A DNA stretch of 64,000 nt from Campylobacterales bacterium (GTDB lineage Bacteria > Campylobacterota > Campylobacteria > Campylobacterales > QNZT01): positions 5,112 to 69,111 of the forward strand of contig JAMONX010000060.1 of assembly GCA_027066435.1 (NCBI GenBank), written 5' to 3'. The notes beneath the pieces are model-generated. The model worked only from the letters and a program-made list of their open reading frames with translations, was not told the origin of the DNA and searched no databases. Positions 2,634 to 34,964 of this stretch are shown here, one piece after another; the stretch's first letter is position 1, and each line of letters starts with the position of its first letter. The translations under genes were made by a program, and so were the position numbers.

Positions 2634-2647
2634 TTATATAGAAAATA

Positions 2648-2687
2648 GGCAAGATATGGTGATATGCCATACCTTGTTTCTTGTTTT
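2648..2687 (+). terminator. Putative rho-independent terminator of ccsBA
   Basis: Hairpin GGCAAGATATGG / CCATACCTTGTT (about 10 bp with one mismatch, 7-nt loop) starts 15 nt after the ccsBA stop. It is followed by the T-rich run TTTCTTGTTTTC. Confidence 0.5.
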
Positions 2688-2692
2688 CGATG

Positions 2693-2724
2693 ATGAGCCT
2701 CACAAAAAGCTAGATGAGGCTCAT
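2693..2724. terminator. Perfect 10-bp inverted repeat between convergent genes (possible terminator for the cytochrome operon)
   Basis: ATGAGCCTCA (2693-2702) and TGAGGCTCAT (2715-2724) with a 12-nt loop, lying between the ccsBA stop and the minus-strand cytochrome stop at 2769. There is no clear U-tract on the minus strand, so the function is uncertain. Confidence 0.35.
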
Positions 2725-2768
2725 TAAGTTTAATCTCTCTTATGTTAAGAATTTATACTTTTATTAAA

Positions 2769-3734
2769 TCACTCTAACCATAATCCTCTAGGTTTATCTT
2801 TCTTCTTATCTTGACGACCTGGTTCATAAAAATATGGTTTATCAGATGCATGAGGGTTATGACATTTTACACAACTACTTTCGCTAGAAGCTGCACAATT
2901 TGTACCTTCTTTTTTAGTTGTTCGTCCTTTTCCTTCATGACAACTTGTACATAGTTTGTTTGGAGTAAGTCTTATGAAGTATTTATTTGGTGAGGAGTGT
3001 GGGTTATGACATCTATCGCATATACCTATAATTACTGGATCGTGCTTATATTTTTTTGACCTAAATGATTGCTGAAACTTTTTATGACAATGTATGCAAG
3101 CTTTATTGATTTCTAATGGGACAGGGTATTTTGTTAGCTTTGAATGTGTTTTTTCATGACAAGTACTGCATACCCAATTTACCGCAGGTGCATGGGCATC
3201 TTGGTATTTTAATAAACTTTGATGACAATTGTAGCAATTTGACTCTTTAGGATCTAAAAATGCAAATCCTTTTTTTTCATTAGAATTCATTTTATGGCAT
3301 TTTTTACATGCTTTTTCATTTTTTGTTGTATGAAAATAGTTGTTTTCATAACCTTTTGGTGAATATTTATATCTTTTATAGACAGGAAATTTATAATATG
3401 ATTCTATTAGCGATTCAAATCTCTTTTTTCCTTTTGAATAAGCCCTTACAAATATTGTATTTTCACCAAAATCTAGAGATACTAATGTGCAATAGGTATC
3501 TCTCTTTTTTGTAATATTATTTTCATAAATAGTACCATTATTTGAATATATTTTTATCTTATCAATGTTCTTATCAATTATTTTAACAACAACTGTAAGA
3601 GTGTTTTTTTGAAAAACTGTATTAGTTTGTGGTTCTAATATTTTTATGGGTTGAGTCTCTTTAGCATTTATATTTAAAAGCAGGGCAAACATAAATAAAA
3701 CTAAATATTTTCCCAAAATTTTTTCTTTTATCAC
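2769..3734 (-). CDS. Periplasmic heptahaem c-type cytochrome with beta-rich N-terminal domain
   Basis: N-terminal signal peptide (MIKEKILGKYLVLFMFALLLNINA). Seven CXXCH motifs (CKKCH, CYNCH, CSTCH, CIHCH, CDRCH, CTSCH, CVKCH), several in the CxxCHNPH context. The first ~100 aa have no haem motif and show an alternating beta-strand-like pattern. Confidence 0.85.
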   Translation of the reverse strand: MIKEKILGKYLVLFMFALLLNINAKETQPIKILEPQTNTVFQKNTLTVVVKIIDKNIDKIKIYSNNGTIYENNITKKRDTYCTLVSLDFGENTIFVRAYSKGKKRFESLIESYYKFPVYKRYKYSPKGYENNYFHTTKNEKACKKCHKMNSNEKKGFAFLDPKESNCYNCHQSLLKYQDAHAPAVNWVCSTCHEKTHSKLTKYPVPLEINKACIHCHKKFQQSFRSKKYKHDPVIIGICDRCHNPHSSPNKYFIRLTPNKLCTSCHEGKGRTTKKEGTNCAASSESSCVKCHNPHASDKPYFYEPGRQDKKKDKPRGLWLE

Positions 3735-3744
3735 GCTTTTCCCT

Positions 3745-5331
3745 TTATCTTTTTATACCAATTGGATTAACCCTATCGTAAGAAAATTTCTTATGACATG
3801 CTGGTTGACACGATCCTCCATTTTTAGTTTCTATATATCTTAGTGGAAATTTTACTCCGCCAAATACTGTATAGTCTCTTATCAGCTTTGGATGCTTAGA
3901 CGCATGTTCATCATGACAAGCTCTACAGGTTCTGCCTTTTCTATCATTAATATGTAAAAAGTGAAGATTTACCTTTCCATCTCTAAATTTTGTACTTTTT
4001 GTAGTGAACTCTTTTTTTATTTTATCAATCTTGTGACATTTAAAGCAGATAAAACCTTTTTTTGAAAAATCACCATAAAACTTTTTAGTATATGACTCTT
4101 TTAGAATACTAAAGTGGTTTGAACCGTGAGGATTATGACATCCTGCACATCCACCCTCTTTTTCTACATCAGATATTGGTTTATGCCAATTCTTATGGGT
4201 TTTTAAATGTTCAGCCATATTCATCATCATTTGACCATCTTCATCAGATTTTAAAGATTTATTATGACACTCAAGACAGGTTTTAACTTGATCTTTTTTT
4301 AATATATTTTTATGATTTGATGCATGTGGATCATGACATTCTAAACATTTCTTACCTTTTCCTACTATCGCACCGTGTTGATATTTTACATTTTTGTAAT
4401 TTATCCATTTTTTATCCATTTTTCTTTTGTTGTGGCATTTCATACAAAGCCCTAAATTCCCATCTTTGGATTTTAAGAGTTTTTTATATTTTGAATTATG
4501 ATGTTCATGACACTCTAAGCAATTTTTTTCAACAGGTTTATGTATATATTTTTTATTTAAATTTATAGTTTTCTTCATATCTTTAACTGACTTATTTTTG
4601 TCATGACATTTAAGACATAGATTATTAACAGATTTCCCTTTTAGTAAAACTTTAGTATTTGATTGATGTGGATCGTGACATTTAAAACATTTACCGTCTT
4701 CCACAGGTTTATGTTTATATTGTTGTTTATCTTTTCGAGGATGACACTTATAACAAAGTGCGACTATATTCTTTTTTGTTACAAGTTTTCCAGGTTCTGC
4801 ACTGTTTCCATCATGACAAATGAGACATGCTCCCTTTTTGAAAGGCTCGTGAAGATATTTTTTGAGAGGTTTAAACTTTTGCGGTAAATCTTCTAATTTT
4901 ACAAGTTCTGTAACTTTTGCATCGATTTTTGAGTGATGCAACATCTTTTCTTCGGTTGCATGCTCTTGCATCGCTATTACTTCTTGTTCTTCTTGTAACT
5001 TTGCAAGTTCGCTATCTAACTTATTTTTTGAAGCAAGCTTAATTTCTAATTCTTTAACCTTTTCTAATAATCCTTCAATTTTTTCTCTCTGCCCAGTTTT
5101 AAAATCTTCAGCAATTTTTGTAATATTAATATCTCTTAACTCTTCTTCACTTACATCTAAATCTATACCTTCGGTGTAATATGAGTGAGGATCTTTTTGT
5201 AAATTTGTCATAATATTTCCCATTATGACTACAAATTTACCAAATTTTGTTCCAACATCATATTTTATAAAAAATATAACTGAAAAAACTATTATTAGAG
5301 TTAAAATGATTAATTTAATATTTTTTGCCAT
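3745..5331 (-). CDS. Membrane-anchored dodecahaem c-type cytochrome (11 CXXCH + 1 CX3CH)
   Basis: N-terminal hydrophobic anchor (IKLIILTLIIVFSVIFFI), then a charged coiled-coil-like stretch (EKIEGLLEKVKELEIKLASKNKLDSELAKLQEEQE). Motifs: CLICH, CYKCH, CFKCH, CLKCH, CLECH, CMKCH, CLECH, CLECH, CAGCH, CFKCH, CRACH and a terminal CQPACH. Confidence 0.85.
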   Translation of the reverse strand: MAKNIKLIILTLIIVFSVIFFIKYDVGTKFGKFVVIMGNIMTNLQKDPHSYYTEGIDLDVSEEELRDINITKIAEDFKTGQREKIEGLLEKVKELEIKLASKNKLDSELAKLQEEQEVIAMQEHATEEKMLHHSKIDAKVTELVKLEDLPQKFKPLKKYLHEPFKKGACLICHDGNSAEPGKLVTKKNIVALCYKCHPRKDKQQYKHKPVEDGKCFKCHDPHQSNTKVLLKGKSVNNLCLKCHDKNKSVKDMKKTINLNKKYIHKPVEKNCLECHEHHNSKYKKLLKSKDGNLGLCMKCHNKRKMDKKWINYKNVKYQHGAIVGKGKKCLECHDPHASNHKNILKKDQVKTCLECHNKSLKSDEDGQMMMNMAEHLKTHKNWHKPISDVEKEGGCAGCHNPHGSNHFSILKESYTKKFYGDFSKKGFICFKCHKIDKIKKEFTTKSTKFRDGKVNLHFLHINDRKGRTCRACHDEHASKHPKLIRDYTVFGGVKFPLRYIETKNGGSCQPACHKKFSYDRVNPIGIKR

Positions 5332-5364: not shown

Positions 5365-5913
5365 TTAGTGAATACTTCTTTTTTCTCTTTTTATTGTAGT
5401 CCCTGTTGGATCTTGAAATTCACCAGCTGGACACTCCTCTTCAATAACCTTATTTCTTACTAGTTTTTTCTTGTCAGCATGATGAGGGCTATGGCATTTG
5501 TTACAATTTAGCTCCCTATCTACCTTCTTCACTGGTGGGTGACATTTGTAGCAAAGACTTTCAACTGTTTTTGTAACTAGTGCAGCAACTTTATCTTTCT
5601 TAGGGGCATGGCAGACATGACAAGCTCCCTGACCAAAAGGCGGATGAATGACTTCTTTAAAAGGTTGAAAAGCTTGAGGAAGCTCTTTTTCCTTTATCAT
5701 ATTGGTTGTCCCAGTATTATTTTTAATATACTCTTTAGTCATACTATCCTCATGCCCTTCATCATGATAGAATGAGTGAGGATCTTTTGCTAAATTTGTT
5801 GCGATATTTTTATTTATCTCAAAAAACTTTCCTATTTTATCACCGCCAAAAATGACAGTTATGGCTATAAGGACTACTACTACAATTAGTGCTATTTTTA
5901 GTGTTTTATTCAT
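5365..5913 (-). CDS. Membrane-anchored trihaem c-type cytochrome
   Basis: N-terminal TM anchor (LKIALIVVVVLIAITVIFGG). Three CXXCH motifs (CHVCH, CYKCH, CNKCH). The N-terminal module is paralogous to that of the 528-aa cytochrome. Confidence 0.8.
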   Translation of the reverse strand: MNKTLKIALIVVVVLIAITVIFGGDKIGKFFEINKNIATNLAKDPHSFYHDEGHEDSMTKEYIKNNTGTTNMIKEKELPQAFQPFKEVIHPPFGQGACHVCHAPKKDKVAALVTKTVESLCYKCHPPVKKVDRELNCNKCHSPHHADKKKLVRNKVIEEECPAGEFQDPTGTTIKREKRSIH

Positions 5914-5926
5914 AATCTAATCCTTC

Positions 5927-6691
5927 CTATTCTGCATAATCTGAAGTATCTTCAATTGGAGCTGGAAGATGCTTCTCTAGTTCATAATGTCCGACATACT
6001 TATGACAATCAACACATTGGGCTTTTTTCCACTCTTTGCCATCTCTAACTTTTAACTTACCAGCAAAATATGCTTTATGTGCAATAAATGGTTTGCTTTT
6101 TAGTTTAGTGGCTCGAAGTAGATTTTCATGACAGTGGAGGCATCCTGAGTCATATACAAATTTTCTCTTATGTTCTCTTTTTTCATGCCAGTCAATTTTT
6201 GAAGTATCGTGAGTTGTTTCAACCCAAAGATCCCACATTCCTGATTTACCCTTTTGTACAAGATATCCAAGTAAAGAGTCATGTGGAAGGTGACAGTCTG
6301 CACATTTTGCAACAACTCCACTTTCTCCAAAACCACCGTGAACACTATTTCTATAAGCTTTTGCCATTGGTTCCATAGAGTGGCATGCACTACAAAATTG
6401 AAGTCCAGATGTTTGCTTAATAGCAATTGCGGAGATAAAAGATATAAACATACCAAGAGCTATAAAACCAAGTGCTAAAAGAAGGTAAAATAGTTTACTC
6501 TTTCCACTTTTTTCCACTTTTTTATCGGTTTTTAAAGTGCTTTTTTTATAATCCTTTGCACCTACCTGCTGTTTTGTTGTATCTTGTTTAGGCACAGGTT
6601 TTGAATTACTCGCCTCTTTGGGCTTTATTTTTTGCCCTTGTGCCTTTAGCTTGGCATCCTCGATGCTCTTTTGTATATCCTTCTTCTCCAT
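5927..6691 (-). CDS. NapC/NirT-family tetrahaem cytochrome c (membrane quinol dehydrogenase type)
   Basis: One TM helix (LFYLLLALGFIALGMFISFISAIAI) is followed directly by CSACH, then CADCH, CLHCH and CVDCH, with NapC/NirT-like spacing. A good SD (AAAGGA) lies 6 nt upstream of the ATG at 6691. The Lys-rich N-terminal tail is unusually long, at 76 aa. Confidence 0.8.
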   Translation of the reverse strand: MEKKDIQKSIEDAKLKAQGQKIKPKEASNSKPVPKQDTTKQQVGAKDYKKSTLKTDKKVEKSGKSKLFYLLLALGFIALGMFISFISAIAIKQTSGLQFCSACHSMEPMAKAYRNSVHGGFGESGVVAKCADCHLPHDSLLGYLVQKGKSGMWDLWVETTHDTSKIDWHEKREHKRKFVYDSGCLHCHENLLRATKLKSKPFIAHKAYFAGKLKVRDGKEWKKAQCVDCHKYVGHYELEKHLPAPIEDTSDYAE

Positions 6692-6985
6692 TCACAATCC
6701 TTTCTAAATTAGTGTAAGGTTTCACGCATATCACAAGAAGTAATTTAATTATTTTAATTAATTCACAACAGCTCAGATTGGTCTACCTATTCGCCTCCAC
6801 GCGAGATAAAATTGTAACATAAAAATAATAAAAAAGAAAAGTTATTATAATTTTTATAAGAAAAGTAAAGAATAACTTTAATGATTTTTTAACGAAATAT
6901 AACTTATAATAATAATTGATAAGGGGTTGTTGTTGAATATGATAATGCAAAATTTAATTCTCTTAGCTTTCAAAATGAGTGATTT

Positions 6986-8134
6986 TTGAAAAAAATTGTT
7001 TTAGTATGTAATACATCTTGGGGAATGATGATGTTTCGAAAAGGTATTATGATAAATTTTTTAAAAGAGGGTCATGAAGTTTTTGTTTTAGCTCCATATG
7101 ATGATTATTCAAAGCAGATTGAAGAGTTAGGGTGTCAGTATATTGAAGTGCCAATGGATAACAAGGGTGCAAGTATATTTAAAGACTTGTTACTTTTACG
7201 AAGACTATATAAGCACTATAAGAAAATTTTACCAGATTTAATATTTCATTATACAATTAAACCAAATATTTTTGGAACTATGGCTGCACACTATGCAAAA
7301 ACAAAATCTATCGCTGTTATTACTGGACTTGGATATACATTTATAAATCAAGGACTTGCTGCAAAGGCTGCTAAACAACTCTACAAGTTGGCTTTACCAA
7401 AGAGTAGAAAAGTATGGTTTATAAATCATGAAGACAGAAAAATGTTTATAAAAGAGGGGTTACTCTCTAGAGACCTTATTGAGATTTTGCCAGGTGAAGG
7501 TGTTGATATGGTTAAATATTCACCTATTGAGAAATCTAGGAATGATGGTAAATTTGTTTTTGTATTAATTGCGAGGCTTCTTTGGGATAAGGGAGTAGGT
7601 GAGTTTGTTCAAGCAGCAAAAGAGATAAAGAAAACTTATCAAAATACAGAGTTTCAGTTAGTTGGTTTTGTTGATGTAAAAAATCCACAAGCTATTTCAA
7701 AAGAGCAAGTTCTCTATTGGGTTGAAAAAGGTTGGATTACTTATAAAGGCTCTACTAATGATGTACGAGATTTTATAAGTTCTGCTGATTGTGTAGTTCT
7801 TCCATCATATAGAGAGGGGATAAGTAAAATACTTTTAGAATCTGCTTCTATGAAGAAGCCGATTATTGCATCTAATGTTCCAGGTTGCAGAGATGTTGTG
7901 GAGAATGCTGGTAGTGGTTATTTATGTAAAGTTAAAAATACAAATGATTTAATTTTAAAAATGGAAAAGATGCTTACTCTAAGCAAAAGTGAGCTTTTGA
8001 ATATGGGGGAGAAGGGTAGAAATCTTGTAAAAGATGAATTTGATGAAAATATTATAATTAAAAAATATAGCCAATCTATTAAATACCATACTTTAAAAGG
8101 TGAAGAAAATGGTGGTTTTGTAAAGAAATATTAA
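6986..8134 (+). CDS. Glycosyltransferase, GT-B fold group 1 / family 4
   Basis: C-terminal EX7E-type region (YREGISKILLESASMKKPIIASNVPGCRDVV) and overall GT4 length and layout. TTG start. Confidence 0.75.
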   Translation: MKKIVLVCNTSWGMMMFRKGIMINFLKEGHEVFVLAPYDDYSKQIEELGCQYIEVPMDNKGASIFKDLLLLRRLYKHYKKILPDLIFHYTIKPNIFGTMAAHYAKTKSIAVITGLGYTFINQGLAAKAAKQLYKLALPKSRKVWFINHEDRKMFIKEGLLSRDLIEILPGEGVDMVKYSPIEKSRNDGKFVFVLIARLLWDKGVGEFVQAAKEIKKTYQNTEFQLVGFVDVKNPQAISKEQVLYWVEKGWITYKGSTNDVRDFISSADCVVLPSYREGISKILLESASMKKPIIASNVPGCRDVVENAGSGYLCKVKNTNDLILKMEKMLTLSKSELLNMGEKGRNLVKDEFDENIIIKKYSQSIKYHTLKGEENGGFVKKY

Positions 8135-8178
8135 TAATAGTCGATTATAGGTGAATATACTATTTTCAAGGGTTACAT

Positions 8179-10509
8179 ATGCAACTTGAGTTTGAAGGCA
8201 ACTCACTAAGTTTAAAAAAAATTATAGCTTCATTTTTTAAATACAAATGGATTAATCTTCTTATAATATTCTGTACTATTTTTTTAGGCTTATTTAATTA
8301 TTACAAAAGTGTGCTTGTTTATGAATCTTGGGCTACTGTAGAGATTAGTACAAATCCATTGGATAATAGGGTTGATTTTTTTGGTAATCAAATTGGAAGA
8401 CCTGCCGCTTTAGAGACTGAGATAGATATTTTAAAATCAGAATTTTTACTAAAAAAAACACTTCACTCTATTGATCTGAGTGTTGAATACTATAAAACAA
8501 AAAGTTATAAAACTACAAGAGTTTATGAACAAAGACCTTTTATAGTTAGGAATTTATATGTCAAAAAAAGCAAAATTTATGGAAAAATGTTTAATATAAA
8601 ACATCTAAATAAATTTCAATATGAACTTTCGATGCAAAACTCATTTATGCAAGATTTATTTTCTCTATTTCCAGAACAAATTATGCCTTCATTTTTAAAA
8701 CCTTCTAAAAGAGAGATATATCGTTATGGGGAGAAAGTTTCGTTAGATAACTGCTCTTTTGTAATTGAAAAAAATGCAAATTTCCAAAGAGCTAAATATA
8801 GCTTTGTTTTAAATTCTTATGAAAATATTGTAAAAAGTATCAAAAGTAATTTAAGTATTAAACCTGCATCTTTTAAGTCCTCAGTTCTTAAAATTACATA
8901 TAAAGATAATATTGCTTCAAGAGCTAAAGATTTTTTAAACTCTTATCTTCAAAACTATCTTCTTTATAGTGAAAAAAGTTTAGTTGAAGCAGATACTAGA
9001 ACACTTGATTTTATTAATGAACAATTACAACTCATAAGTGGAAAATTAAAAGAGTCTGAAGATAGACTGCAAGGTTATAAAAGTAGCAATAATATTACAG
9101 ATATTGAGACTCAAAAGAGAGAAGTAGCTCAAAAAATTAATGATTTTCATAATCAATTAAATGATGCCAAGATTGAACTTAGAGTTGTAAATAAACTTTA
9201 TGCGGAAACTAAAAAAGGAAATTACAACATAATCAGTTCAATTGCCAAAGAGTATCCAGTCTTAAATACAATGCTTGAAAACTTAGAAGACTCAAAGCTT
9301 GAATTTGAGAGGAAGTCAGCACTCTTAACAATAAATCATCCTGAAATTATAAGTTTGACCACTGCTATTAAAAATATCGAAGGGGGAATTTTAGATATTT
9401 CCAAAGGAATCTTAGAGAGATCAAAAGAGCGGGTCAACTCTCTTAAAGGTATGATTAGAGATTATATATCAGAAATTAAAAAACTTCCAGAAATTGAAAA
9501 AGAGTTAGTAAAACATGAAAGAATTTTTGCAGTAAATGATAAAGTCTATAACTATTTATTAAATAAACAGTCTGAATTATCTATTGAAAAAGCTTCAACT
9601 AAGCCAGATAAAAAAGTGCTTGATTTTGCAAAAAAATCATCTACCCCTTTGAGTCCTAAGCTTAGTATTGCACTAGCAATTAGTACTTTTTTAGGTCTTG
9701 TCTTTGCACTACTTCATACGTTAATTAGACTCAAGCTTGATACAAAAATAAAAGATAAAAATGATATTTATGCTTTAACTGATATTCCAATTTTTGGTAT
9801 GATTCCATTTGTTAAAGATTCGGAAAAATATAACTCGGCTTATGTGTTAGATGAGCCAAATTCTATAACCAGTGAAGCATTTAGAAATATAAAAAATAAT
9901 TTAGAATATACAGTAACTAACAATAAGTGTAAAGTCATCTTAGTAACTTCAACTGTACCAAATGAAGGGAAAACTACAATTTCAGCAAATCTTTCTGCAA
10001 TATTGGGAATGGGTGAGAAAAAAGCTATATTACTCTCTTTAGATCTTCGTCGTCCAGAATTACATTATAAGTTTGCACTATCAAACAAAATTGGAATTAG
10101 TGATGTTCTCTCAAATCGAGTTAGCATAAAAGAGGTTATTTGGGAAAATGAAAACTTTAAGAATCTTAATATTGTAACTTCTGGAAAAATCCCACCAAAC
10201 CCAGCAGAACTTCTGGCATCAACTCGCATGAAAGATTTGATAAATGAGCTTAGTGATAAATATGATTATATCATTTTAGATACTCCTCCTTTTGAATATG
10301 TATCAGATGCTTTGAGTTTAGTGAAATATGCAGATGTAACATTATTTGTGTTAAAATCTGAATTTTCAGAAGATAAATATATAAAAGAAATTGATAAAAT
10401 AGTTAAAAAACTTGGTATTGAGAATCCAGGTATTATTTTAAACTCTGTAAAAGAAAAAAATTATGTAACTAAAAAATTTGATTATAAATATATCTATCAT
10501 GAAGCTTGA
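8179..10509 (+). CDS. Polysaccharide co-polymerase / tyrosine autokinase (Wzc-like)
   Basis: Two TM helices flank a long coiled-coil periplasmic domain (Wzz-like). The C-terminal P-loop ATPase has Walker A (PNEGKTT) and Walker B (YIILDTPP) plus a Tyr-rich tail (KKFDYKYIYHEA). Confidence 0.8.
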   Translation: MQLEFEGNSLSLKKIIASFFKYKWINLLIIFCTIFLGLFNYYKSVLVYESWATVEISTNPLDNRVDFFGNQIGRPAALETEIDILKSEFLLKKTLHSIDLSVEYYKTKSYKTTRVYEQRPFIVRNLYVKKSKIYGKMFNIKHLNKFQYELSMQNSFMQDLFSLFPEQIMPSFLKPSKREIYRYGEKVSLDNCSFVIEKNANFQRAKYSFVLNSYENIVKSIKSNLSIKPASFKSSVLKITYKDNIASRAKDFLNSYLQNYLLYSEKSLVEADTRTLDFINEQLQLISGKLKESEDRLQGYKSSNNITDIETQKREVAQKINDFHNQLNDAKIELRVVNKLYAETKKGNYNIISSIAKEYPVLNTMLENLEDSKLEFERKSALLTINHPEIISLTTAIKNIEGGILDISKGILERSKERVNSLKGMIRDYISEIKKLPEIEKELVKHERIFAVNDKVYNYLLNKQSELSIEKASTKPDKKVLDFAKKSSTPLSPKLSIALAISTFLGLVFALLHTLIRLKLDTKIKDKNDIYALTDIPIFGMIPFVKDSEKYNSAYVLDEPNSITSEAFRNIKNNLEYTVTNNKCKVILVTSTVPNEGKTTISANLSAILGMGEKKAILLSLDLRRPELHYKFALSNKIGISDVLSNRVSIKEVIWENENFKNLNIVTSGKIPPNPAELLASTRMKDLINELSDKYDYIILDTPPFEYVSDALSLVKYADVTLFVLKSEFSEDKYIKEIDKIVKKLGIENPGIILNSVKEKNYVTKKFDYKYIYHEA

Positions 10510-25754: not shown

Positions 25755-26422
25755 AAATAGCAGTTATCCTTTATCCTGGAACAAACTGTGAGTATGATAG
25801 TAAATATGCATATGAGATGTTAAATCAAAATGTAGAGCTGATTTGGCATAAAGAGACAAAATTACCACAAAATTTAGACTTAGTGGTAATTGCTGGTGGA
25901 TTTAGTTACGGAGATGCACTTAGAAGTGGAGCTATTGCTAAGTTTTCACCAATAACTAAAGCCATTGTTGAGTATGCCAATAGTGGTGGAAAAGTTTTAG
26001 GAATTTGCAATGGATTTCAGATACTTTTAGAGGCAAATTTACTTCCAGGAGCTATGAAACACAATAAAAATGTACATTTTATCTCAAAATATCATCACTT
26101 AAAAGTAGAAAATAGTGAAAATGATTTTTTAAAAGAGTTAAAAAAAGGAGATATTGTAAATATACCAATTTCCCATGGTGAGGGAAATTATTATATTGAT
26201 TCAGATGCACTTGATGAACTTTATGATAATAATCAAATTCTTTTAACTTATTGTGATGAAAATGGCAAAATTCTAAATCCTAATGGTTCAGTAGATTCAA
26301 TCGCAGGAATCTGCAATAAAAATAGAAATGTATTTGGCTTAATGCCTCACCCTGAGAGAGCAATGGAAAAATTACTAGGTTCAGATGATGGTATAAAAAT
26401 GTTACAGGGTTTGATTAGTTGA
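25751..26422 (+). CDS. purQ: FGAM synthase glutamine amidotransferase subunit PurQ
   Basis: Class I GATase motifs: GICNGFQ nucleophile elbow and MPHPER. Confidence 0.95.
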   Translation: MKIAVILYPGTNCEYDSKYAYEMLNQNVELIWHKETKLPQNLDLVVIAGGFSYGDALRSGAIAKFSPITKAIVEYANSGGKVLGICNGFQILLEANLLPGAMKHNKNVHFISKYHHLKVENSENDFLKELKKGDIVNIPISHGEGNYYIDSDALDELYDNNQILLTYCDENGKILNPNGSVDSIAGICNKNRNVFGLMPHPERAMEKLLGSDDGIKMLQGLIS

Positions 26423-27708
26423 AAGTAAAACTATTTTTTATTTTAACACTTCTAACACTATTTTCACTACAATCTAATGCTGGTCTGTTTGATAATCTGT
26501 TTGGAGGAGGTAAAGAGGCTCCTCAAATCAGACAAGAAGAAGCTATTATCATAGAAGATGAGGAGATTATCTCTGCTGAGGATTATCTAAATAGTACAGA
26601 TGCACCTACAAATATAGAAGTTTTTCCAAATGATGAAGTTTCCTCACAGGCATTTGATGATGCTGAAGAGTTCATTGATGATAGTGATTTTGAAGATCCT
26701 TTGGTTCGAGCACAAAGTATCTTTCTCTCTTTTTCAGACGCACCAAAAAAGATATATCTTTCACAAAGAGTAGTTATAAAATTAAAAGCAGTTGTTACAA
26801 ATGAAAATGTTACATTTTTGAAAACCTCATTTCTAAAAGCAAAAGATATTCAAATTTTAAATAAAAGTGCTTCTTGGAAAAAAACTTCACCAAACTCTTA
26901 TGAAATTTCATATATTCTTAAATTCTTTTCAACGGTCGGTAAGTTACCTGATTTTAAAGTAACAACATATTCAGATGGTAGAGTTTTAAGTAGTGAAACG
27001 CTCTTTGCATACAAACCTAAAATTATTGCTCTTCGTGAAGATAAAGAGTTTTCTTTAGTTCTGTCAAAAGATTTTACTCTCCAAAGTCATAATGAAAAGA
27101 AGTATGATGAAAAATCCAATATTGTAGTTTTAGAGTTAAATGCAACTGAAGCAAATCTTGAAGATTTCCATATACCTTATGCCATAAAAGATGGTATATA
27201 TGATATAAAAGAGTATGGTTTAAATCAAAGTATCTACTATTTTGCAATAATTCCAAATGATATAAAGGTCTTCAAATTTAAATATTTTGACCTTATTAGC
27301 AATAAATATCACATAGTGACTTTTCCTATTTTATTACAAGATAGTAGTATTAGCACACAGACAGATTTAAACCCTCAAAAAAGCAGATTTGCTCTTTATA
27401 AAGCTATAGCTTTAATAGTTTTGGCTTTTATAATATTTCTTTTTTATATAAAAACAAGAGCTTTATATCTTTTGGTTCTTACTTTTGCAGTACTTGCATT
27501 TGTTCTTTATAAGCAGATTCCTATAAGTAAAGTAACATTAGAAAAAGGGGTAAATTTAAGAATTTTGCCAACAGAAAATTCAACTATATTTTATGTCACA
27601 CAAGAGAAAACCCAAGCAGATATGTTACTTAAAAAAGATGGATATATAAAATTGTTACTTCCAAATAAAAAAATCGGATGGATAAATGAAGATTCTACAA
27701 AAAATTAA
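26419..27708 (+). CDS. Membrane protein with acidic N-terminal region and C-terminal SH3-like segment; function unknown
   Basis: Signal peptide, Asp/Glu-rich stretch, two TM helices near residue 330-365, and a C-terminal ~60 aa resembling bacterial SH3 (GVNLRILPTENSTIFY...GWINE). TTG start overlaps the purQ stop. Confidence 0.5.
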   Translation: MKVKLFFILTLLTLFSLQSNAGLFDNLFGGGKEAPQIRQEEAIIIEDEEIISAEDYLNSTDAPTNIEVFPNDEVSSQAFDDAEEFIDDSDFEDPLVRAQSIFLSFSDAPKKIYLSQRVVIKLKAVVTNENVTFLKTSFLKAKDIQILNKSASWKKTSPNSYEISYILKFFSTVGKLPDFKVTTYSDGRVLSSETLFAYKPKIIALREDKEFSLVLSKDFTLQSHNEKKYDEKSNIVVLELNATEANLEDFHIPYAIKDGIYDIKEYGLNQSIYYFAIIPNDIKVFKFKYFDLISNKYHIVTFPILLQDSSISTQTDLNPQKSRFALYKAIALIVLAFIIFLFYIKTRALYLLVLTFAVLAFVLYKQIPISKVTLEKGVNLRILPTENSTIFYVTQEKTQADMLLKKDGYIKLLLPNKKIGWINEDSTKN

Positions 27709-28390: not shown

Positions 28391-30487
28391 CTATTCATCC
28401 AACATCCAATAGAGAAAACTAGGAATATCATTTATCCCTATATAGATATAATTATTTTTGCCTCTATAGTCATTTCGTTTTGTATATGTTATGCGTAGGA
28501 TGTTTAAAAAATCTAGATATACATTGTTACCAAAACCGATATTTTTGTCGATGGGGCTATCTAAATCCTGATATATTGACGCTCCAAGACCAAGTGTTAT
28601 CATATCTTTTTTTAATTCATAGTTTAAATTTATATCAGCTCTTAAAAAATGTTCTTGATTATTTTGATTTTGTATTACATAAGAGAGTGATGGTTTAACC
28701 TCAATCGCTTTTGGGATTAAAAAACTAAGAGAGTTATTATCAATATAGTAGTAGTTTTCATATCCAATAGAGAGAATATTTTTTGCATAAGAGAGTTCAT
28801 AAGGAAAATATTGTATCCATAGTTTTTTATTATTAATTGGTGCTGAGATTGGGTTGTAAGTATACCCACTTTTAGTTTTATAAAATGTTCCTGTAGTATA
28901 TGCCGCAATAGATGCAAATGGTTTTGTAAGGTTGTTTGAATTCTCTTTTTCAAGTGTTACGATACGCTGCACTATGCTTGAAAGGGGTCTTCTGTACCAG
29001 TTATCTGGATGCGAAAGAGTATGTTTTAGGTAACTATTGGTAGCTTTATAATTATATTTATTAAGTTTATTTATAAAAGTATAAAACTCTTCCATATTTT
29101 GAAAATTTAGATCTTTTATCGATTCAAATATTGCAAATAAATCATACTGTTTTAGATAATCTTTTTCTTCAAATCTATATCCAAATTCCTCAAAACTTAA
29201 AAGGTTAAGTATATATTTTGCTCTATCTGACTCTTTTGATAGCAGTTTATAGATACTTTTTCTTGCAACTTTTTGACATCTTTGATTTTTTAACTCATTA
29301 TCTGTTCTCTCACTGCAAAGATATTTTGTACTATCTATAATTGCATCATAAACACCTACATAATAGTCATATTGGCGAAAACCTTTATCTAAAAAGGCTC
29401 CAAAATGTTCTAAAAATTTACCTGTTATTGGAAAGTATCTTGAAGAGATTTGGATTTCTTTTTGAGTATTGCCAAACTCTTGAGCTAGTGTATTATAAAG
29501 GATACTAGATTCAGATGCACTATAGATATCTCCAATCAAATCTATAGCACTGTTGATTGGGCTTTGTGTTTGCTTCAATACTCTAAGAGATTTTTTTTGA
29601 TGCTCTTTTCGCATATGTTTTGGATCCATAAATATATAATTTTTTGCTCTATATTTTGAAAGCCTTATAGCAAAATCCAAAGGAACATTATCAAAAACAC
29701 CACCATCCAAAAAGAGAGCCTTTTCAAATTTTCCATGATGCAAATATTCAAGCTCCACCTGTTCAAAAGCAATTGGAAATGCACTAGATGCATAAAGTGC
29801 TTTTAAAACTTGCTCTTTTGAAGGATTACCTCCACTTGAGAGATGAATGATATTATCACGGGAGAGATCAAAATTATCTTCTATTTTTGCTTTTTTGGAG
29901 TCATCGACACTAAGATAAAGTGGTATATGAAACAGCTTATTGGAAATTTTAATATTTTGGATTTTAGAAATCTTTGGTTCAACTCTAGTAACTGCAAATC
30001 CAAATGCTATTTTGCATCCAGGCTCATAATATGGCTTATCAAGTGCTAAAAAAGCTTCTGTTGCTAATTTTTCAATTTTTGTTCTACTAAAAAGTGATGT
30101 TTGATTTGATGGGTCATCAGTCCCAAACTCTTTATCTATAAAAAGATCTTCAAAATCGATCTCAGTCCACATATGATAAAAAAGATTATCATCAATAAGA
30201 TTTTCACGATCTGCCATCTCTTGGCTTCTACACCAAGACAAAGAAGAGAGTAGGGCATTGATGGCTCCAGCAGATGCACCAGTAATTGAGTGCATCTGAA
30301 TATCTACTTTTTTCTCATGGTGCTTGAGGTGATTTAAATACTTTAAAAGCCCCCAATTATAACCAGCCTCATAAGCACCAAGAGAGATACCACCACTGAT
30401 AATCAACGAGAAATCCTTCTCTTTATCATATGCAAAAAGAGGAAAAGAGAACATAAACAGTATAAATGATAAAAATATTTTTTTCAT
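28391..30487 (-). CDS. Secreted patatin-like phospholipase with ~350-aa C-terminal extension
   Basis: Signal peptide (MKKIFLSFILFMFSFPLFA). Patatin motifs: glycine-rich GGISLGAYEAG, GASAG serine lipase motif and catalytic-Asp DGG. The C-terminal third is rich in alternating aromatic/polar beta-strand-like segments. Confidence 0.8.
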   Translation of the reverse strand: MKKIFLSFILFMFSFPLFAYDKEKDFSLIISGGISLGAYEAGYNWGLLKYLNHLKHHEKKVDIQMHSITGASAGAINALLSSLSWCRSQEMADRENLIDDNLFYHMWTEIDFEDLFIDKEFGTDDPSNQTSLFSRTKIEKLATEAFLALDKPYYEPGCKIAFGFAVTRVEPKISKIQNIKISNKLFHIPLYLSVDDSKKAKIEDNFDLSRDNIIHLSSGGNPSKEQVLKALYASSAFPIAFEQVELEYLHHGKFEKALFLDGGVFDNVPLDFAIRLSKYRAKNYIFMDPKHMRKEHQKKSLRVLKQTQSPINSAIDLIGDIYSASESSILYNTLAQEFGNTQKEIQISSRYFPITGKFLEHFGAFLDKGFRQYDYYVGVYDAIIDSTKYLCSERTDNELKNQRCQKVARKSIYKLLSKESDRAKYILNLLSFEEFGYRFEEKDYLKQYDLFAIFESIKDLNFQNMEEFYTFINKLNKYNYKATNSYLKHTLSHPDNWYRRPLSSIVQRIVTLEKENSNNLTKPFASIAAYTTGTFYKTKSGYTYNPISAPINNKKLWIQYFPYELSYAKNILSIGYENYYYIDNNSLSFLIPKAIEVKPSLSYVIQNQNNQEHFLRADINLNYELKKDMITLGLGASIYQDLDSPIDKNIGFGNNVYLDFLNILRITYTKRNDYRGKNNYIYIGINDIPSFLYWMLDE

Positions 30488-30612: not shown

Positions 30613-32328
30613 ATGAATCACTCTTTTGGTTTCGATGCTTATGTTTCTAGTATATCAAACCAAATTAGAGCAAATTTTCAAAAGATAGACCGTGCTTTTG
30701 ATGATTGTAAAATTTCAAAAGATGAAAAGCCCCAAGCTATTCTTAAATCAAGTAAGCTTATTCAAATGGCTCATGATTGTAGTCAATATCGTAAAATCGA
30801 TCCTTTGAGCATCGGTATTTTTGGTGAGTGGGGAAGTGGTAAGACAAAACTTCTTCGAGGGATAGAAAACCATTTCTTTGTGGATGAAAAAATAATCCCT
30901 ATATTTTTCAATGCTTGGCGTTATGAAAAAGATGAACATATCATCATACCTCTTTTTAAAACAGTTCTTCATCAGCTAAAAAAAGATAAAGATAAAACTC
31001 TGTATGAGAACTTTAGAATACTTACTTTTTCACTTTTGAGTGGTTTCAGTGCTGAATTTTTGGGATTGAAGTTTGATGCAAATAGTGTGATATCAAGATT
31101 GTTTGAGATGCAAAAAGATGAAGAAATTGATGAACTTGATTTGATGGAGCGTATAGAGTCTGTATATTTTAATATACCTCAAAAATTAGAGGAACTTACA
31201 CTCGAACATGAAGTAAGATTTGTTTTTCTCATAGATGATCTTGATCGTTGTTTGCCTGAAAATACTTTGAAGATGCTAGAGAGTATCAAACTGTTTTTAG
31301 ATATTCCTGGATGTGCATTTGTTTTGGCTATAGATGACGATATCGTTGAGAGAGGAGTGGAGCATCATTACAAAGATTATATCAAAAATGAAATCCATAT
31401 AAATAATGGCAAAAAAGAGGAGCCGACCGAAAAATCTCCTGTACAAAATATTCCCATAACAGGAAGTGAATATCTTGAAAAGATGATACAACTGCCTTTT
31501 GCACTTCCCATACTTCATAAAAGTGATGTTGAAACATTTTTAAGAGAAAATTATCGTGAAATTTTTGAGACAATGATAAAACATGAGTTAAGAGAACAAG
31601 AGAGAAAATCATTTGATGAACAGTTTTTAAAACTATTTACAAAGATAATTCCGCCAATTCCTAGAAAATTGATTCGTACTATTGAAGTTTTTAAACTTAA
31701 ATCTGAACTTATAGATATAGATAAAAATGATTTGTTAAAGTTAATTGCTTTAGAGCTTTTTGCCCCATCTCTCTTTAGGCTTACAAAACAAAACTTCCCA
31801 AAACAAAATATCTTTAATATACTCAATGGTTGGATGGAGAAAGTAACGATATATGAGTTTGAAAAAATTGAAGAAAATATTATAGGCAAATCTTCAAGTG
31901 AGATGATAAAAAGATTGTATAGTGATATACTTTTTATCCTAAAAAAAGAGGATTTAAGTCGTGTGAAGTTTGATATGGATACAGTTTTTCAAAAACCTAT
32001 CTCAAAAAACTCGATAGAGAGATATCTCTACCTAGACAATAAAATCTCCCAAACAACTTATAATAAAAATAGTATCTCTCCACTCGCTTCAAGTAAACTA
32101 GAAAATCTTTTAAAATCCTTGGCAAGTGACGATGAAAAAGAGTGGCAAATAGCACTAAATGAGCTTGAAGGTGGAGTTTTAAGCTCTGTAGATGTGGATA
32201 AAATCATAGAGAAAGATATAGATATAACAAACTCTTGGCTTCAAACTATTGCTCCAAATTTAGATGAAGATGATTTTATAAAAGTCATCAAAGCATCAAA
32301 ACTATTAAAAGAGGTTGCAAATGAGTAA
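30613..32328 (+). CDS. KAP-family P-loop NTPase (soluble variant)
   Basis: Walker A in the KAP-typical form GIFGEWGSGKT. Walker B in the KAP-typical form VFLIDDLDRCLPE. About 125 residues lie between them, with no convincing TM insertion. 571 aa with a long helical C-terminal region. Confidence 0.85.
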   Translation: MNHSFGFDAYVSSISNQIRANFQKIDRAFDDCKISKDEKPQAILKSSKLIQMAHDCSQYRKIDPLSIGIFGEWGSGKTKLLRGIENHFFVDEKIIPIFFNAWRYEKDEHIIIPLFKTVLHQLKKDKDKTLYENFRILTFSLLSGFSAEFLGLKFDANSVISRLFEMQKDEEIDELDLMERIESVYFNIPQKLEELTLEHEVRFVFLIDDLDRCLPENTLKMLESIKLFLDIPGCAFVLAIDDDIVERGVEHHYKDYIKNEIHINNGKKEEPTEKSPVQNIPITGSEYLEKMIQLPFALPILHKSDVETFLRENYREIFETMIKHELREQERKSFDEQFLKLFTKIIPPIPRKLIRTIEVFKLKSELIDIDKNDLLKLIALELFAPSLFRLTKQNFPKQNIFNILNGWMEKVTIYEFEKIEENIIGKSSSEMIKRLYSDILFILKKEDLSRVKFDMDTVFQKPISKNSIERYLYLDNKISQTTYNKNSISPLASSKLENLLKSLASDDEKEWQIALNELEGGVLSSVDVDKIIEKDIDITNSWLQTIAPNLDEDDFIKVIKASKLLKEVANE

Positions 32329-34450
32329 AGATAAAAAACTACAAGAGACAATCTCAATAATCACAAACAAAATCAACCCATTGCATAAAAAGGAGATAAG
32401 AGATTTAAAAGATTTAATATCTGTAGAAAAGTTGGAAAAAAAGCTAGACAAAAATGAAGGTTTAAATTTAAGAGGTACTAACTTAAATCCAAATGAGTTT
32501 AAAAATGCAGATATATCAAATAAAATAGATGGAGAGTTTACACTTCAAATCAACTATGCTTTAAATGATATTGTAAATGATATCGTATATCTTGATTGTG
32601 TAACAGTTGCAGTTGCAGGAAGTTGTGGTATCTACATTTATAATAGTTTGAAAAATGTAGTTTTATACTTTATTCCTATTATGGAAGGTGTAATAGCTAT
32701 TATCAAATTGGATGAAGAGAGAATCGCTTTTGGTGGAAGTGATAAAAAAGTAACAATTTTTAATTATAAAACAAAAAAGATATTACATGAACAACCAGTT
32801 TCTGACAATGTGGAAGCTATTATCAAATTGGATGAAGAGAGAATCGCTTTTGGTGGAAGTGATAAAAAAGTAACAATTTTTAATTATAAAACAAAAAAGA
32901 TATTACATGAACAACCAGTTTCTGATAATGTGGAAGCTATTAGCAAATTGGATGAAGAGAGGATTGCTTTTAGTGGAAGGGATAAAAAAGTAACAATTTT
33001 TAATTATAAAACAAAAAAGATATTACATGAACAACCAGTTTCTGACAATATGAATGCTATTATCAAATTGGATAAAGAGAGAATTGCTTTTGGTGGGTGG
33101 GATAAAAAAGTAACAATTTTTAATTATAAAACAAAAAAGATATTACATGAACAATCAGCCTCTAGCTCTGTGAATGCTATTATCAAATTGGATGAAGAGA
33201 GAATCGCTTTTGGTGGATGGGATGAAAAAGTAACAATTTTTAATTATAAAATAAAAAAGATATTACATGAACAACCAGTTTCTAACAATGTGAATGCTCT
33301 TACCAAATTGGACGAAGAGAGGATTGCTTTTGGTGGATGGGATGAAAAAGTAACAATTTTTAATTATAAAATAAAAAAGATATTACATAAACAACCAGTC
33401 TCTAGCTCTGTGTATGCTATTATCAAATTGGATGAAGAGAGAATTGCTTTTGGTGGAAATGGTAAAAAAGTAACAATTTTTAATTATAAAACAAGAAAGA
33501 TATTACATGAACAACCAGTTTCTGACAATGTGGAAGCTATTATCAAATTGGATGAAGAGAGGATTGCTTTTGGTGGAGATAAAAAAGTAACAATTTTTAA
33601 TTATAAAACAAAAAAGATATTACATGAACAACCAGTCTCTATCTATGTGCATGCTATTATCAAATTGGATGAAGAGAGAATTGCTTTTGGTGGGTGGGAT
33701 AAAAAAGTAACAATTTTTAATTATAAAACAAAAAAGATATTATATGAACAACCAGTCTCTATCTCTGTGAAAGCTATTACTAAATTGGATGAAGAGAGAA
33801 TTGCTTTTGGTGGAAATGGTAAAAAAGTAACAATTTTTAATTATAAAACAAAAAAGATATTACATGAACAACCAGTCTCTAGCTCTGTGGATGCTATTAT
33901 CAAATTGGATGAAGAGAGAATTGCTTTTGGTGGAAATGATAAAAAAGTAACAATTTTTAATTATAAAACAAAAAAGATATTATATGAACAACCAGTCTCT
34001 ATCTCTGTGAAAACTATTACTAAATTGGATGAAGAGAGAATTGCTTTTGGTGGGTGGGATAAAAAAGTAACAATTTTTAATTATAAAACAAAAAAGATAT
34101 TATATGAACAACCAGTTTCTGGCTTTGTGAATGCTATTATCAAATTGGATGAAGAGAGAATTGCTTTTGGTGAGTTTAATGGAAAAGTAACAATTCTTAA
34201 ATGGAAAGATAAAAAGAATATTATCTTAGAAGTAAAAAGTTTTGATGATGGAATTGTTTCAAGTTATGAGCCAACAGCAAATCAGCTAACACTTATAAAC
34301 ACAAAAGGAGACTTTACTCCAAACAACGACCCTATATTGTACCGCCATGCTTGGTATGTCAATAAATCAAATCGAATTGAACCATATTTTAAATTTCCAA
34401 ATAGATGGGAATTTGATGAAGAAGAGGCAAATAAAATAGTTTTAAGATAA
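32321..34450 (+). CDS. WD40-like beta-propeller repeat protein (13 near-identical + 1 degenerate 40-aa blades)
   Basis: The ATG at 32321 overlaps the KAP stop by 8 nt (ATGAGTAA), with SD AAGAGG 6 nt upstream. The TTG at 32315 is an alternative start. The repeat unit AIIKLDEERIAFGGxDKKVTIFNYKTKKILHEQPVSxxVx matches the WD40 pattern (His at the GH position, GGxD turn, hydrophobic strand ending in an aromatic). Confidence 0.85.
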   Translation: MSKDKKLQETISIITNKINPLHKKEIRDLKDLISVEKLEKKLDKNEGLNLRGTNLNPNEFKNADISNKIDGEFTLQINYALNDIVNDIVYLDCVTVAVAGSCGIYIYNSLKNVVLYFIPIMEGVIAIIKLDEERIAFGGSDKKVTIFNYKTKKILHEQPVSDNVEAIIKLDEERIAFGGSDKKVTIFNYKTKKILHEQPVSDNVEAISKLDEERIAFSGRDKKVTIFNYKTKKILHEQPVSDNMNAIIKLDKERIAFGGWDKKVTIFNYKTKKILHEQSASSSVNAIIKLDEERIAFGGWDEKVTIFNYKIKKILHEQPVSNNVNALTKLDEERIAFGGWDEKVTIFNYKIKKILHKQPVSSSVYAIIKLDEERIAFGGNGKKVTIFNYKTRKILHEQPVSDNVEAIIKLDEERIAFGGDKKVTIFNYKTKKILHEQPVSIYVHAIIKLDEERIAFGGWDKKVTIFNYKTKKILYEQPVSISVKAITKLDEERIAFGGNGKKVTIFNYKTKKILHEQPVSSSVDAIIKLDEERIAFGGNDKKVTIFNYKTKKILYEQPVSISVKTITKLDEERIAFGGWDKKVTIFNYKTKKILYEQPVSGFVNAIIKLDEERIAFGEFNGKVTILKWKDKKNIILEVKSFDDGIVSSYEPTANQLTLINTKGDFTPNNDPILYRHAWYVNKSNRIEPYFKFPNRWEFDEEEANKIVLR
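32696..34252 (+). repeat. In-frame 120-bp tandem repeat array, 13 units (one of 117 bp)
   Basis: Units start at 32696, 32816, 32936, 33056, 33176, 33296, 33416, 33536 (117 bp), 33653, 33773, 33893, 34013 and 34133. Units 1 and 2 differ at 1 of 120 nt. The last unit degenerates in its second half. A more divergent blade precedes the array at about 32576-32695. Confidence 0.95.
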
Positions 34451-34472: not shown

Positions 34473-34964
34473 ATGAAAGAGTTATATCTCATAAGACATG
34501 CCAAATCAGACTGGAGCCAAGAAAAAAGCGATTTTGAACGAGGTTTAAACAAAAGAGGAAATAATGATGCACCTTTGATGGGTGAAGTTTTAAACTCTTT
34601 GGGTGTGATGCCCGATCTCATCATATCAAGCCCAGCAAAGAGAGCCATTTTAACTGCAAATATAATTAGCCAAAAGGTAGGATATGAGAAAGATAAAATC
34701 CAAAAAGAGGAGTCATTATATCTTGCATCTGAAGCTACATTTTATAAGTATACCAACAATATAAACGACAAACAAAACAAAGTTTTTATATTTTCTCACA
34801 ATCCTGGCATCACAGAGTTTGCTGAATCTTTAACAGATACTTTTATAGGCAATATCCCAACAACCGGCATCTGTCATATTTTATTAGATGTTGATAGTTG
34901 GGAAAATATAAGAGAGGGTGATGGAAAGCTTCTGTCTTTTGATTTTCCTAAAAATCATAAGTAA
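34473..34964 (+). CDS. Histidine phosphatase superfamily protein, SixA-like
   Basis: N-terminal RHAKS (RHG-type) motif and a second catalytic His in FIFSHNPGI. 163 aa. Lies 22 nt downstream of the WD40 gene. Confidence 0.7.
   Translation: MKELYLIRHAKSDWSQEKSDFERGLNKRGNNDAPLMGEVLNSLGVMPDLIISSPAKRAILTANIISQKVGYEKDKIQKEESLYLASEATFYKYTNNINDKQNKVFIFSHNPGITEFAESLTDTFIGNIPTTGICHILLDVDSWENIREGDGKLLSFDFPKNHK

Follow-up and report, generated by a model that had tools for sequence, protein, structure and literature searches.

A pair of overlapping genes in a Campylobacterales bacterium encodes a KAP-family P-loop NTPase and a WD40-like propeller protein assembled mostly from near-identical blades. With moderate confidence, the pair is read here as a two-chain sensor-switch module of the type known from NTPase-based conflict systems acting against viruses or other invaders. 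It lies on a stretch of 64,000 nucleotides (GenBank assembly GCA_027066435.1, contig JAMONX010000060.1, positions 5,112 to 69,111 of the forward strand; referred to as the window) as two co-oriented open reading frames (ORFs), gene 1 at 30613-32328 (+) and gene 2 at 32321-34450 (+). An initial annotation, made from the letters of the window alone, had proposed a split NTPase switch combined with a self-similar repeat sensor. This proposal is supported by the recurrent coupling of such genes, by gene fusions, by exchange of the sensor for domains targeted by diversity-generating retroelements (DGRs), by one locus (L030; loci and contigs carrying relatives are designated L, homologous proteins P) where a NACHT and a KAP protein apparently share a DGR, and by variation limited to binding hotspots. 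Since other sensors that diversify rapidly are found on relatives of the ATPase, the pair looks like a putative two-chain NLR-type sensor of invaders.

The two frames overlap by 8 nucleotides (nt), the ATG of gene 2 beginning at 32321 and the TAA stop codon of gene 1 occupying 32326-32328; this overlap and the Shine-Dalgarno-like motif inside gene 1 were confirmed as initially annotated. The gene 1 product matched the Pfam family KAP_NTPase (PF07693) with E=1.2e-34 (120.4 bits; cutoff 20) and, besides that, only AAA_22, below threshold. Both Walker motifs are intact. Two or four transmembrane (TM) helices between Walker A and Walker B are typical of many KAP members, but not obligatory. A search for TM segments in the gene 1 protein (Kyte-Doolittle hydropathy over 19 residues) returned none, with a maximum of 1.33 in the insert between the Walker motifs and of 1.63 overall, on the strand after Walker B, so that the assignment to a KAP NTPase lacking the TM insertion holds. 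No STAND NTPase profile (NACHT, NB-ARC, or nSTAND) matched this protein.

An AlphaFold2 (AF2) model of the KAP protein, computed from a 95-sequence alignment (predicted local distance difference test, pLDDT, 86; predicted TM-score, pTM, 0.81), runs from a long N-terminal helix through the P-loop core and a beta-hairpin to an all-helical C-terminal region. The insert between the Walker motifs, where other KAP proteins carry TM helices, is modeled as soluble helices that are poorly ordered and have low pLDDT. Residues 1-60, to which no Pfam domain matched, vary in length among relatives, with conserved F/Y/I/NF positions and variable coiled-coil-like insertions (alignment A1). The whole architecture, residues 330-571 included, is conserved across the subfamily; the latter region, initially considered a possible hiding place for an effector, is modeled with high confidence as helices and is best described as a structural arm and not as a hidden effector. 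It ends in a motif containing W542, the point beyond which fused relatives carry the sensor. A sequence search against solved structures detected nothing for the KAP part, and the best folds in the PDB for the model were the RADAR ATPase RdrA, which forms a heptameric ring, and ORC/Cdc6 AAA+ proteins, the similarity to RdrA being modest (TMq 0.39).

Gene 2 is dominated by a tandem array, delimited by Tandem Repeats Finder (TRF) at 32696-34172 with a period of 120 nt, 12.3 copies, and 91% matches. Dissection into units yielded ~14 blades, namely 12 near-identical ones, a degenerate 13th, and a degenerate N-terminal blade. The 2.1-kb ORF is unbroken, and every unit, including the one of 117 nt, is in frame. 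Mean pairwise identity among the 12 units is 91% at the nucleotide and 84% at the amino acid level (minimum 72.5%), 22 of the 40 unit positions are invariant, and non-adjacent units resemble each other in patchwork fashion, as is evident from the identity matrix. The self-similarity and the blade number stated in the initial annotation thus stood, whereas a canonical WD40 signature did not: PF00400 (WD40) gave no match to the gene 2 protein, the matches being to propeller-family models, mostly below their cutoffs, and GH and WD dipeptides are missing from the repeats. In the AF2 model of gene 2, which was computed from the single sequence, ~55 strands are present, four per unit (A, positions 39-4; B, 9-14; C, 18-23; D, 28-34). 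The top PDB match found with Foldseek was 2ymu, the 14-repeat "highly repetitive propeller" of Nostoc, a double propeller (E=3e-23), followed by tandem double-propeller proteins and Apaf-1; the ~14 blades probably form two propellers. Ahead of the array, the N-domain has residues N19, P20, R51, and G52 invariant across 13 aligned partners; with residues 1-95 as query against 1.84 billion proteins, phmmer returned three representatives, the domain being too divergent for a single-sequence search. Family matches of the gene 2 protein to blaNDM, CO_deh_flav_C, the LTI65/78 repeat, DUF7724, and PADLOC HEAT-ARM_XIII were rejected as spurious products of summed weak repeat matches.

The differences between the units are not spread evenly. 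The most variable codons of the unit are 15 (S/R/W/N), 37, 38, and 40, with position 3 as a minor fifth, and these five of 40 codons hold 66% of the non-synonymous differences. [quoted passage not shown] According to the hotspot rule of Wu et al, 2012 (PMC3419727), the interaction positions of a WD40 blade are located by the bulge motif (V/L/I)-R1-R2-(V/L/I) and the Asp in the B-C turn. Via the bulge V39-x40-A1-I2 and Asp16, positions 40, 38, and 15 correspond to R1, R1-2, and D-1, the three top-face hotspots. The chance of the four most variable positions all falling within the eight top-face positions upon random placement is ~8e-4. Moreover, variation falls on these positions also in the partners of L004, L022, L025, L006, and L023. 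Hu et al, 2017 (PMC5587647) described hotspot diversity as a general pattern of "highly repetitive" WD40 proteins, which are common in bacteria, and gene 2, with internal identity of at least 0.7 and diversity at the hotspots, belongs to their HR/HIC class.

Relatives of the pair were collected as protein homologues of the KAP protein, of which the 120 best (31-100% identity, query included) were considered, and as loci. At ~20 distinct loci, full-length members without the FGE domain treated below are followed by a translationally coupled partner gene that overlaps the KAP stop codon by 1-13 nt, and these partners carry the same N-domain and C-terminal tail around repeats of 41-45 residues with high self-similarity. 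The hosts belong to Campylobacterota, Gamma- and Betaproteobacteria, Zetaproteobacteria, and other phyla. All 10 partners tested against Pfam matched WD40 or propeller families, eight of them PF00400 at 4e-21 to 5e-129, and complete partners of 725-850 residues (L004, L022, L025, L096, and L125) have the array flanked by conserved termini as in gene 2. The tail could be aligned in the window, L002, L004, and L005, and was matched by a hidden Markov model (HMM) in L018, L022, L023, L026, and L039. An adjacent repeat gene, to be looked for according to the initial annotation, does recur beside such KAP genes; the window locus itself lies outside any defense island. At two loci, L023 and L051, KAP and WD40 parts form a single polypeptide. 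The L023 fusion, 1118 residues long, contains the partner N-domain at residues 563-683, as the linker segment, and the tail at residues 1070-1100; in Rosetta-stone fashion, it shows that the two window proteins can be expected to act as one unit, presumably as a physical complex. Separately, three loci (L043:12076-14391, L049:11992-14553, and L063:12080-14449) encode a non-repetitive partner or C-terminal extension of 770-850 residues. Those of L049 and L063 had no Pfam match and that of L043 weak, sub-threshold propeller matches; they may represent further sensor types.

A different sensor is attached to the majority of the 120 protein homologues. About 68 of the 120 are KAP proteins of 780-960 residues fused to a C-terminal FGE-sulfatase domain (C-type-lectin fold). 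KAP-FGE fusions were also counted at ~24 loci, and the closest full-length relatives, P0004 (52% identity) and P0005 (49%), are of this type. The FGE domain in P0004 and P0005, like the partner N-domain in L023, begins ~6-25 residues past the W542 motif. The best PDB match of the FGE profile was the DGR variable protein TvpA, and bAvd and a reverse transcriptase (RT) gene lie directly 3' of three KAP-FGE genes. At L020, a 118-nt variable repeat (VR) is situated at the 3' end of the KAP-FGE gene and the template repeat (TR) downstream of the RT gene, and 11 of the 12 mismatches between them fall on template adenines; at L030, this is the case for 17 of 17 TR/VR mismatches. The latter DGR (L030:1789-9992; TR 1789-1903, RT 8485-9651, Avd 9651-9992) has two tandem targets, a NACHT-FGE gene (2051-5149) and a KAP-FGE gene of the window's subfamily (5370-8432). 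The neighbor protein matches NACHT at 2e-12, the two FGE domains share 92% identity across 990 nt, and one DGR appears to serve both. Within the 64-kb window, HMMs for RT and Avd gave no match, and Pfam found no FGE domain in the window's KAP protein, which is no DGR target itself. On a rough neighbor-joining tree of KAP cores, members with WD40 sensors and members with FGE sensors are intermixed, the window and L002 being sister to the FGE-fused P0004 and P0005, from which it follows that the sensor module was exchanged repeatedly on a constant ATPase chassis. One KAP chassis would have arrived, in close lineages, at a hypervariable surface by two independent routes, DGR-mutagenized lectin domains and shuffled near-identical WD40 blades, a convergence that makes a strong comparative case for KAP NTPases being able to fill the STAND role in innate immunity.

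A working mechanism can be proposed on this basis. The WD40 partner would be the specificity subunit, docking via its N-domain, and possibly its tail, onto the C-terminal helical arm of the KAP protein, and the top faces of the ~14 blades would present a diversified surface for binding a foreign or otherwise variable protein. Binding of the ligand would release the KAP ATPase into an NTP-dependent oligomer, ring-like as in RdrA or ORC-type ATPases. Most likely, the output would be exerted by the ATPase assembly itself through a hydrolysis-dependent action, as in single-gene KAP defense proteins; an effector encoded elsewhere is regarded as less likely, because no effector is linked to the pair and protection by single-gene KAP proteins has a precedent. 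In-frame recombination among the 120-bp cassettes would re-sort the array and thereby change specificity, in parallel to the DGR hypermutation of the sister FGE sensors. The boldest form of the proposal, an effector-less two-chain NLR analogue whose specificity is reprogrammed by cassette recombination and whose ligand-triggered KAP ring is the executioner, is offered tentatively and must be considered doubtful as a whole. If it is true, NTPase immune sensors would have a further, new way of producing their output, and modular binders based on propellers could be drawn from nature. Independently of this bold form, the split, effector-less pair offers a simple two-protein system in which to study signaling without nuclease, TIR, or protease. 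It also extends the candidate immune receptors into the poorly studied Campylobacterota of vents and sulfidic sites. Should the function be confirmed, the blades, each with three variable positions on a conserved framework, would be a natural scaffold for engineered binders.

Several points weigh against reading the pair as a sensor-switch module. Profile scans found no effector domain or effector gene at the locus, N-terminal domains included (as the initial annotation had stated), and no third gene recurs beside the KAP loci. The window and the L022, L023, L026, and L039 loci lie among housekeeping genes, in partial synteny and outside defense islands and mobile elements. The pN/pS ratio (non-synonymous over synonymous polymorphism) of 2.2 at the five variable codons versus 0.37 elsewhere was obtained with site classes picked post hoc. 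Confidence in the gene 2 model is moderate (pLDDT 61 overall, 65-83 in the array, and below 50 at the termini), the termini being unreliable, hence both the closing of the propellers and the functions of the N-domain and tail are tentative. The neighbor-joining tree of KAP cores carries no support values. Finally, differences in repeat number between assemblies may be assembly artefacts.

Of the alternatives, the one that survives best, albeit unlikely, holds that an ATPase-scaffold pair with a housekeeping or regulatory duty remodels an ordinary complex (e.g., in membrane-proximal signaling or the envelope) and that the repeats are a young, stable scaffold. The subfamily is chromosomal and sporadic: in 185,579 species genomes, two subfamily motifs led to 112 stretches that were confirmed. 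This distribution and the unrelated genomic contexts of its other members, differing between lineages, argue against the scaffold, although partial synteny across a Campylobacterales clade (glgA-KAP-WD-amtB-valS is common to four Campylobacterales metagenome-assembled genomes, MAGs) and the housekeeping surroundings speak in its favor. So do the normal GC content, the lack of an effector and of a mobile-element signature, and the lack of full-length relatives in the phage, plasmid, and viral-contig collections searched. WD40 proteins are also generic scaffolds, and highly repetitive ones abound in bacteria (PMC5587647). However, pseudogenes occur, one of them with a stop inside the P-loop, sister proteins are DGR targets, one sharing its DGR with a NACHT protein, and variation in the array is confined to binding hotspots while the bottom loops stay invariant.

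The evidence for a diversifying sensor applies equally to a conflict module directed against non-phage targets, be it injected bacterial toxins or effectors, or kin and self/non-self recognition. The highly self-similar WD40 sensors of fungi (HET-E/D/R) serve allorecognition, and the hosts of the pair are mat- and biofilm-forming Campylobacterota of vents and sulfidic sites. NTPase-FGS-type systems were tied to social or multicellular habits by Kaur et al, 2021 (PMC8195603). Yet both proteins are cytoplasmic, having neither signal peptide nor TM segment, no secretion-system or toxin genes at the loci point in this direction, and all KAP systems tested experimentally act on phages. This version is considered less probable still than the housekeeping scaffold.

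It is very improbable that most of the array results from faulty assembly or gene decay and that the cell makes no such 14-blade protein. In favor of this view, two other same-species assemblies end at the first repeat, repeat numbers beside identical KAP genes are inconsistent among metagenomic relatives, and a collection of 15 billion proteins contains no exact match to the gene 2 protein. Against it, the units differ in a structured way, unlike collapsed copies, and the reading frame and the flanking termini are preserved as described above. Of the two same-species assemblies, the Logan contig L001 equals the window for 2065 nt and then shows six mismatches in its last 44 nt, at the array edge (L001:2066-2095 corresponds to window 32674-32703), whereas the ENA contig L170 (99.8% identical over 12 kb) stops inside the first repeat. 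As both break at the array edge, neither can confirm the repeat number in the window; the L001 mismatches may stem from real polymorphism of the array within the population or from noise in the path taken by the assembler. In L005-L007, which stem from different samples, an identical 545-residue KAP protein is accompanied by WD40 arrays differing in unit number and order, the L005 array resembling a collapsed L006 array. These differences were not counted as variation because assembler collapse would look alike.

As to the surroundings, the genes upstream of the pair encode an S41 peptidase, purC/S/Q, an acyltransferase, and a patatin of secreted type, and a sixA-like gene (34473-34964), valS, and a kefB-like gene follow downstream. 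The initial annotation had placed the pair between plsC and valS beside a divergent patatin gene; the housekeeping flanks are as described, but the sixA-like gene intervenes before valS. GC content at the locus is not anomalous (window DNA, 31% GC), a promoter/terminator scan (27 sites vs 25.8 expected) was uninformative at this GC content, and an Rfam scan of the window returned zero matches. The patatin was rejected as an effector, since no patatin or plsC homologue adjoins any of ~160 KAP loci and the gene is divergently oriented. Likewise, the sixA-like gene was rejected as part of the module (one other occurrence, 3 kb away on the opposite strand), as was an N-terminal effector in L031, which proved to be a spurious high-GC ORF extension. 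The patatin-like protein (window 28391-30487 (-), 698 residues) has an N-terminal hydrophobic leader and, at its C-terminus, ~400 residues that are unassigned; it had no NCBIfam match and is unlinked to KAP genes elsewhere. A 429-residue ORF (window 26419-27708 (+)) without a Pfam match shares bases with the purQ stop codon and with the beginning of the acyltransferase gene, and its product has a signal-like N-terminal segment and a hydrophobic stretch near the C-terminus.

Among the relatives, L026:3625-6400 has its stop codon within the P-loop (G*WGSCKS) and a split partner, the KAP gene of L039:5758-7433 is frameshifted, and that of L018:9782-11782 contains an in-frame stop; the partners at these three loci are short (189-223 residues). 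One Nitratifractor MAG contains two paralogous pairs, whose KAP genes (L011:429-2402 and L013:4098-5852) are 84% identical. The disrupted copies point to dispensability and, together with this paralogy, count in favor of the sensor-switch reading. The two paralogous KAP frames are open and conserved through Walker A with no ATG, GTG, or TTG upstream, which suggests use of a non-canonical start codon. A metagenome scan with the single KAP protein gave no match, and one with alignment A1 retrieved mostly generic KAP cores.

Table 1. Features of the KAP-WD40 gene pair (positions refer to the window).
Feature	Position	Strand	Basis
Gene 1, KAP-family P-loop NTPase, cytoplasmic, no TM insertion	30613..32328	+	571 aa; Pfam PF07693, AF2, fold match
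N-terminal helical region, subfamily-specific, aa 1-60, long helix 7-35	30613..30792	+	AF2; alignment A1
Walker A GEWGSGKT, aa 71-78	30823..30846	+	Sequence; G74, G76, K77 invariant in alignment A1
Walker B VFLIDDLDR, aa 204-212	31222..31248	+	Sequence; D208, D209, R212 invariant in 95 sequences
C-terminal helical region with beta-hairpin, aa ~300-571	31510..32325	+	Conserved in split and fused members; high-confidence helices
Shine-Dalgarno-like AAGAGG inside gene 1, 6 nt 5' of gene 2 ATG	32309..32314	+	Sequence
8-nt overlap ATGAGTAA (gene 2 start/gene 1 stop)	32321..32328	+	Sequence
Gene 2, WD40-like propeller partner	32321..34450	+	709 aa; propeller-family Pfam matches, AF2, Foldseek
N-domain of the partner (aa 1-~90) with motifs NP..KK.I and NLRG; would dock on the KAP C-terminus	32321..32590	+	
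Degenerate first blade	32591..32695	+	AF2 strands 95-129; HMM cross-matches with repeat units
Array of 12 near-identical 120-nt (40-aa) units, one of 117 nt (39 aa)	32696..34132	+	TRF, unit table
Degenerate terminal (13th) unit AIIKLDEERIAFGEFNGKVTILKWKDKKNIILEVKSFDDG	34133..34252	+	Unit dissection
Conserved C-terminal tail (~65 aa; LY.HAWYV ... PYF motif) plus stop	34253..34450	+	Alignment, HMM

The pair is less new than had been assumed, as KAP-FGS/DGR systems are already described and defense by single-gene KAP proteins was recently validated. Kaur et al, 2021 (PMC8195603) predicted NTPase-FGS systems to be conflict systems and noted that a KAP ATPase can take the place of the STAND NTPase in them. 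KAP NTPases were also named among the targets of DGRs by Dore et al, 2024 (PMC10907252). In keeping with these systems, the closest relatives (49-52% identity) are KAP-FGE proteins, members of the subfamily are DGR targets, and the layout is that of an NTPase, a helical arm, and a C-terminal diversifying sensor. The window pair differs in having a separate WD40 protein in place of FGE, no RT or Avd within 64 kb, and neither an N-terminal effector-associated domain nor an effector; its diversification would employ repeat recombination and not reverse transcription. In the literature, no description was found of a KAP NTPase whose highly repetitive WD40 partner is a protein of its own.

WD40 and FGE types are both represented among the sensors of STAND proteins (PMC12803255). 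With the STAND/NLR receptors of the WD40 type (HET-E/D/R NACHT-WD40, bacterial Apaf-1-like, and 2ymu), the pair has in common an NTPase switch and near-identical blades varying at the hotspots, and the L030 locus has NACHT and KAP proteins interchangeable on one DGR sensor. In terms of the tripartite STAND logic, the NTPase with its helical arm and the sensor are present, whereas the N-terminal effector is absent. Further differences are that the NTPase is KAP and not NACHT or NB-ARC, that sensor and switch are separate chains in most members, and that the repeats are devoid of the canonical dipeptides.

To the KAP anti-phage proteins PifA, QatA (of QatABCD), the PADLOC candidate PDC-S20, and EF_KAP with its related single-gene systems (PMC13552941), the gene 1 product is related by the common KAP P-loop core. 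PADLOC scores for gene 1 (QatA, 1e-30; PifA, 9e-23; PDC-S20, 2e-20) reflect similarity of the NTPase core only, the score with the NCBIfam QatA model is 126 bits against a cutoff of 600, and membership in any of the three was therefore rejected. The neighbors in the window are the patatin, the WD40 partner, the sixA-like gene, and valS, and not QatB, QatC (QueC-like), or QatD (TatD). Single-gene KAP NTPases with diverse C-terminal regions confer phage defense that depends on Walker B (PMC13552941), and a KAP domain governing a variable C-terminal module, with Walker B required in those tested, is the likeness to the window pair, in which TM helices are missing and this module is the separate WD40 protein. 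RdrA of RADAR (8hr8 and 8fnu), a ring-forming defense ATPase, ranked second by E-value (~1e-5) and had the highest TM-score, but the TMq given above extends over ~480 columns and ORC/Cdc6 AAA+ proteins score similarly. Sequence identity with RdrA is 12-14%, and no RdrB deaminase partner is present. Judged by its sequence, the ATPase is thus a KAP NTPase and not a STAND NTPase, QatA, PifA, or a DGR target.

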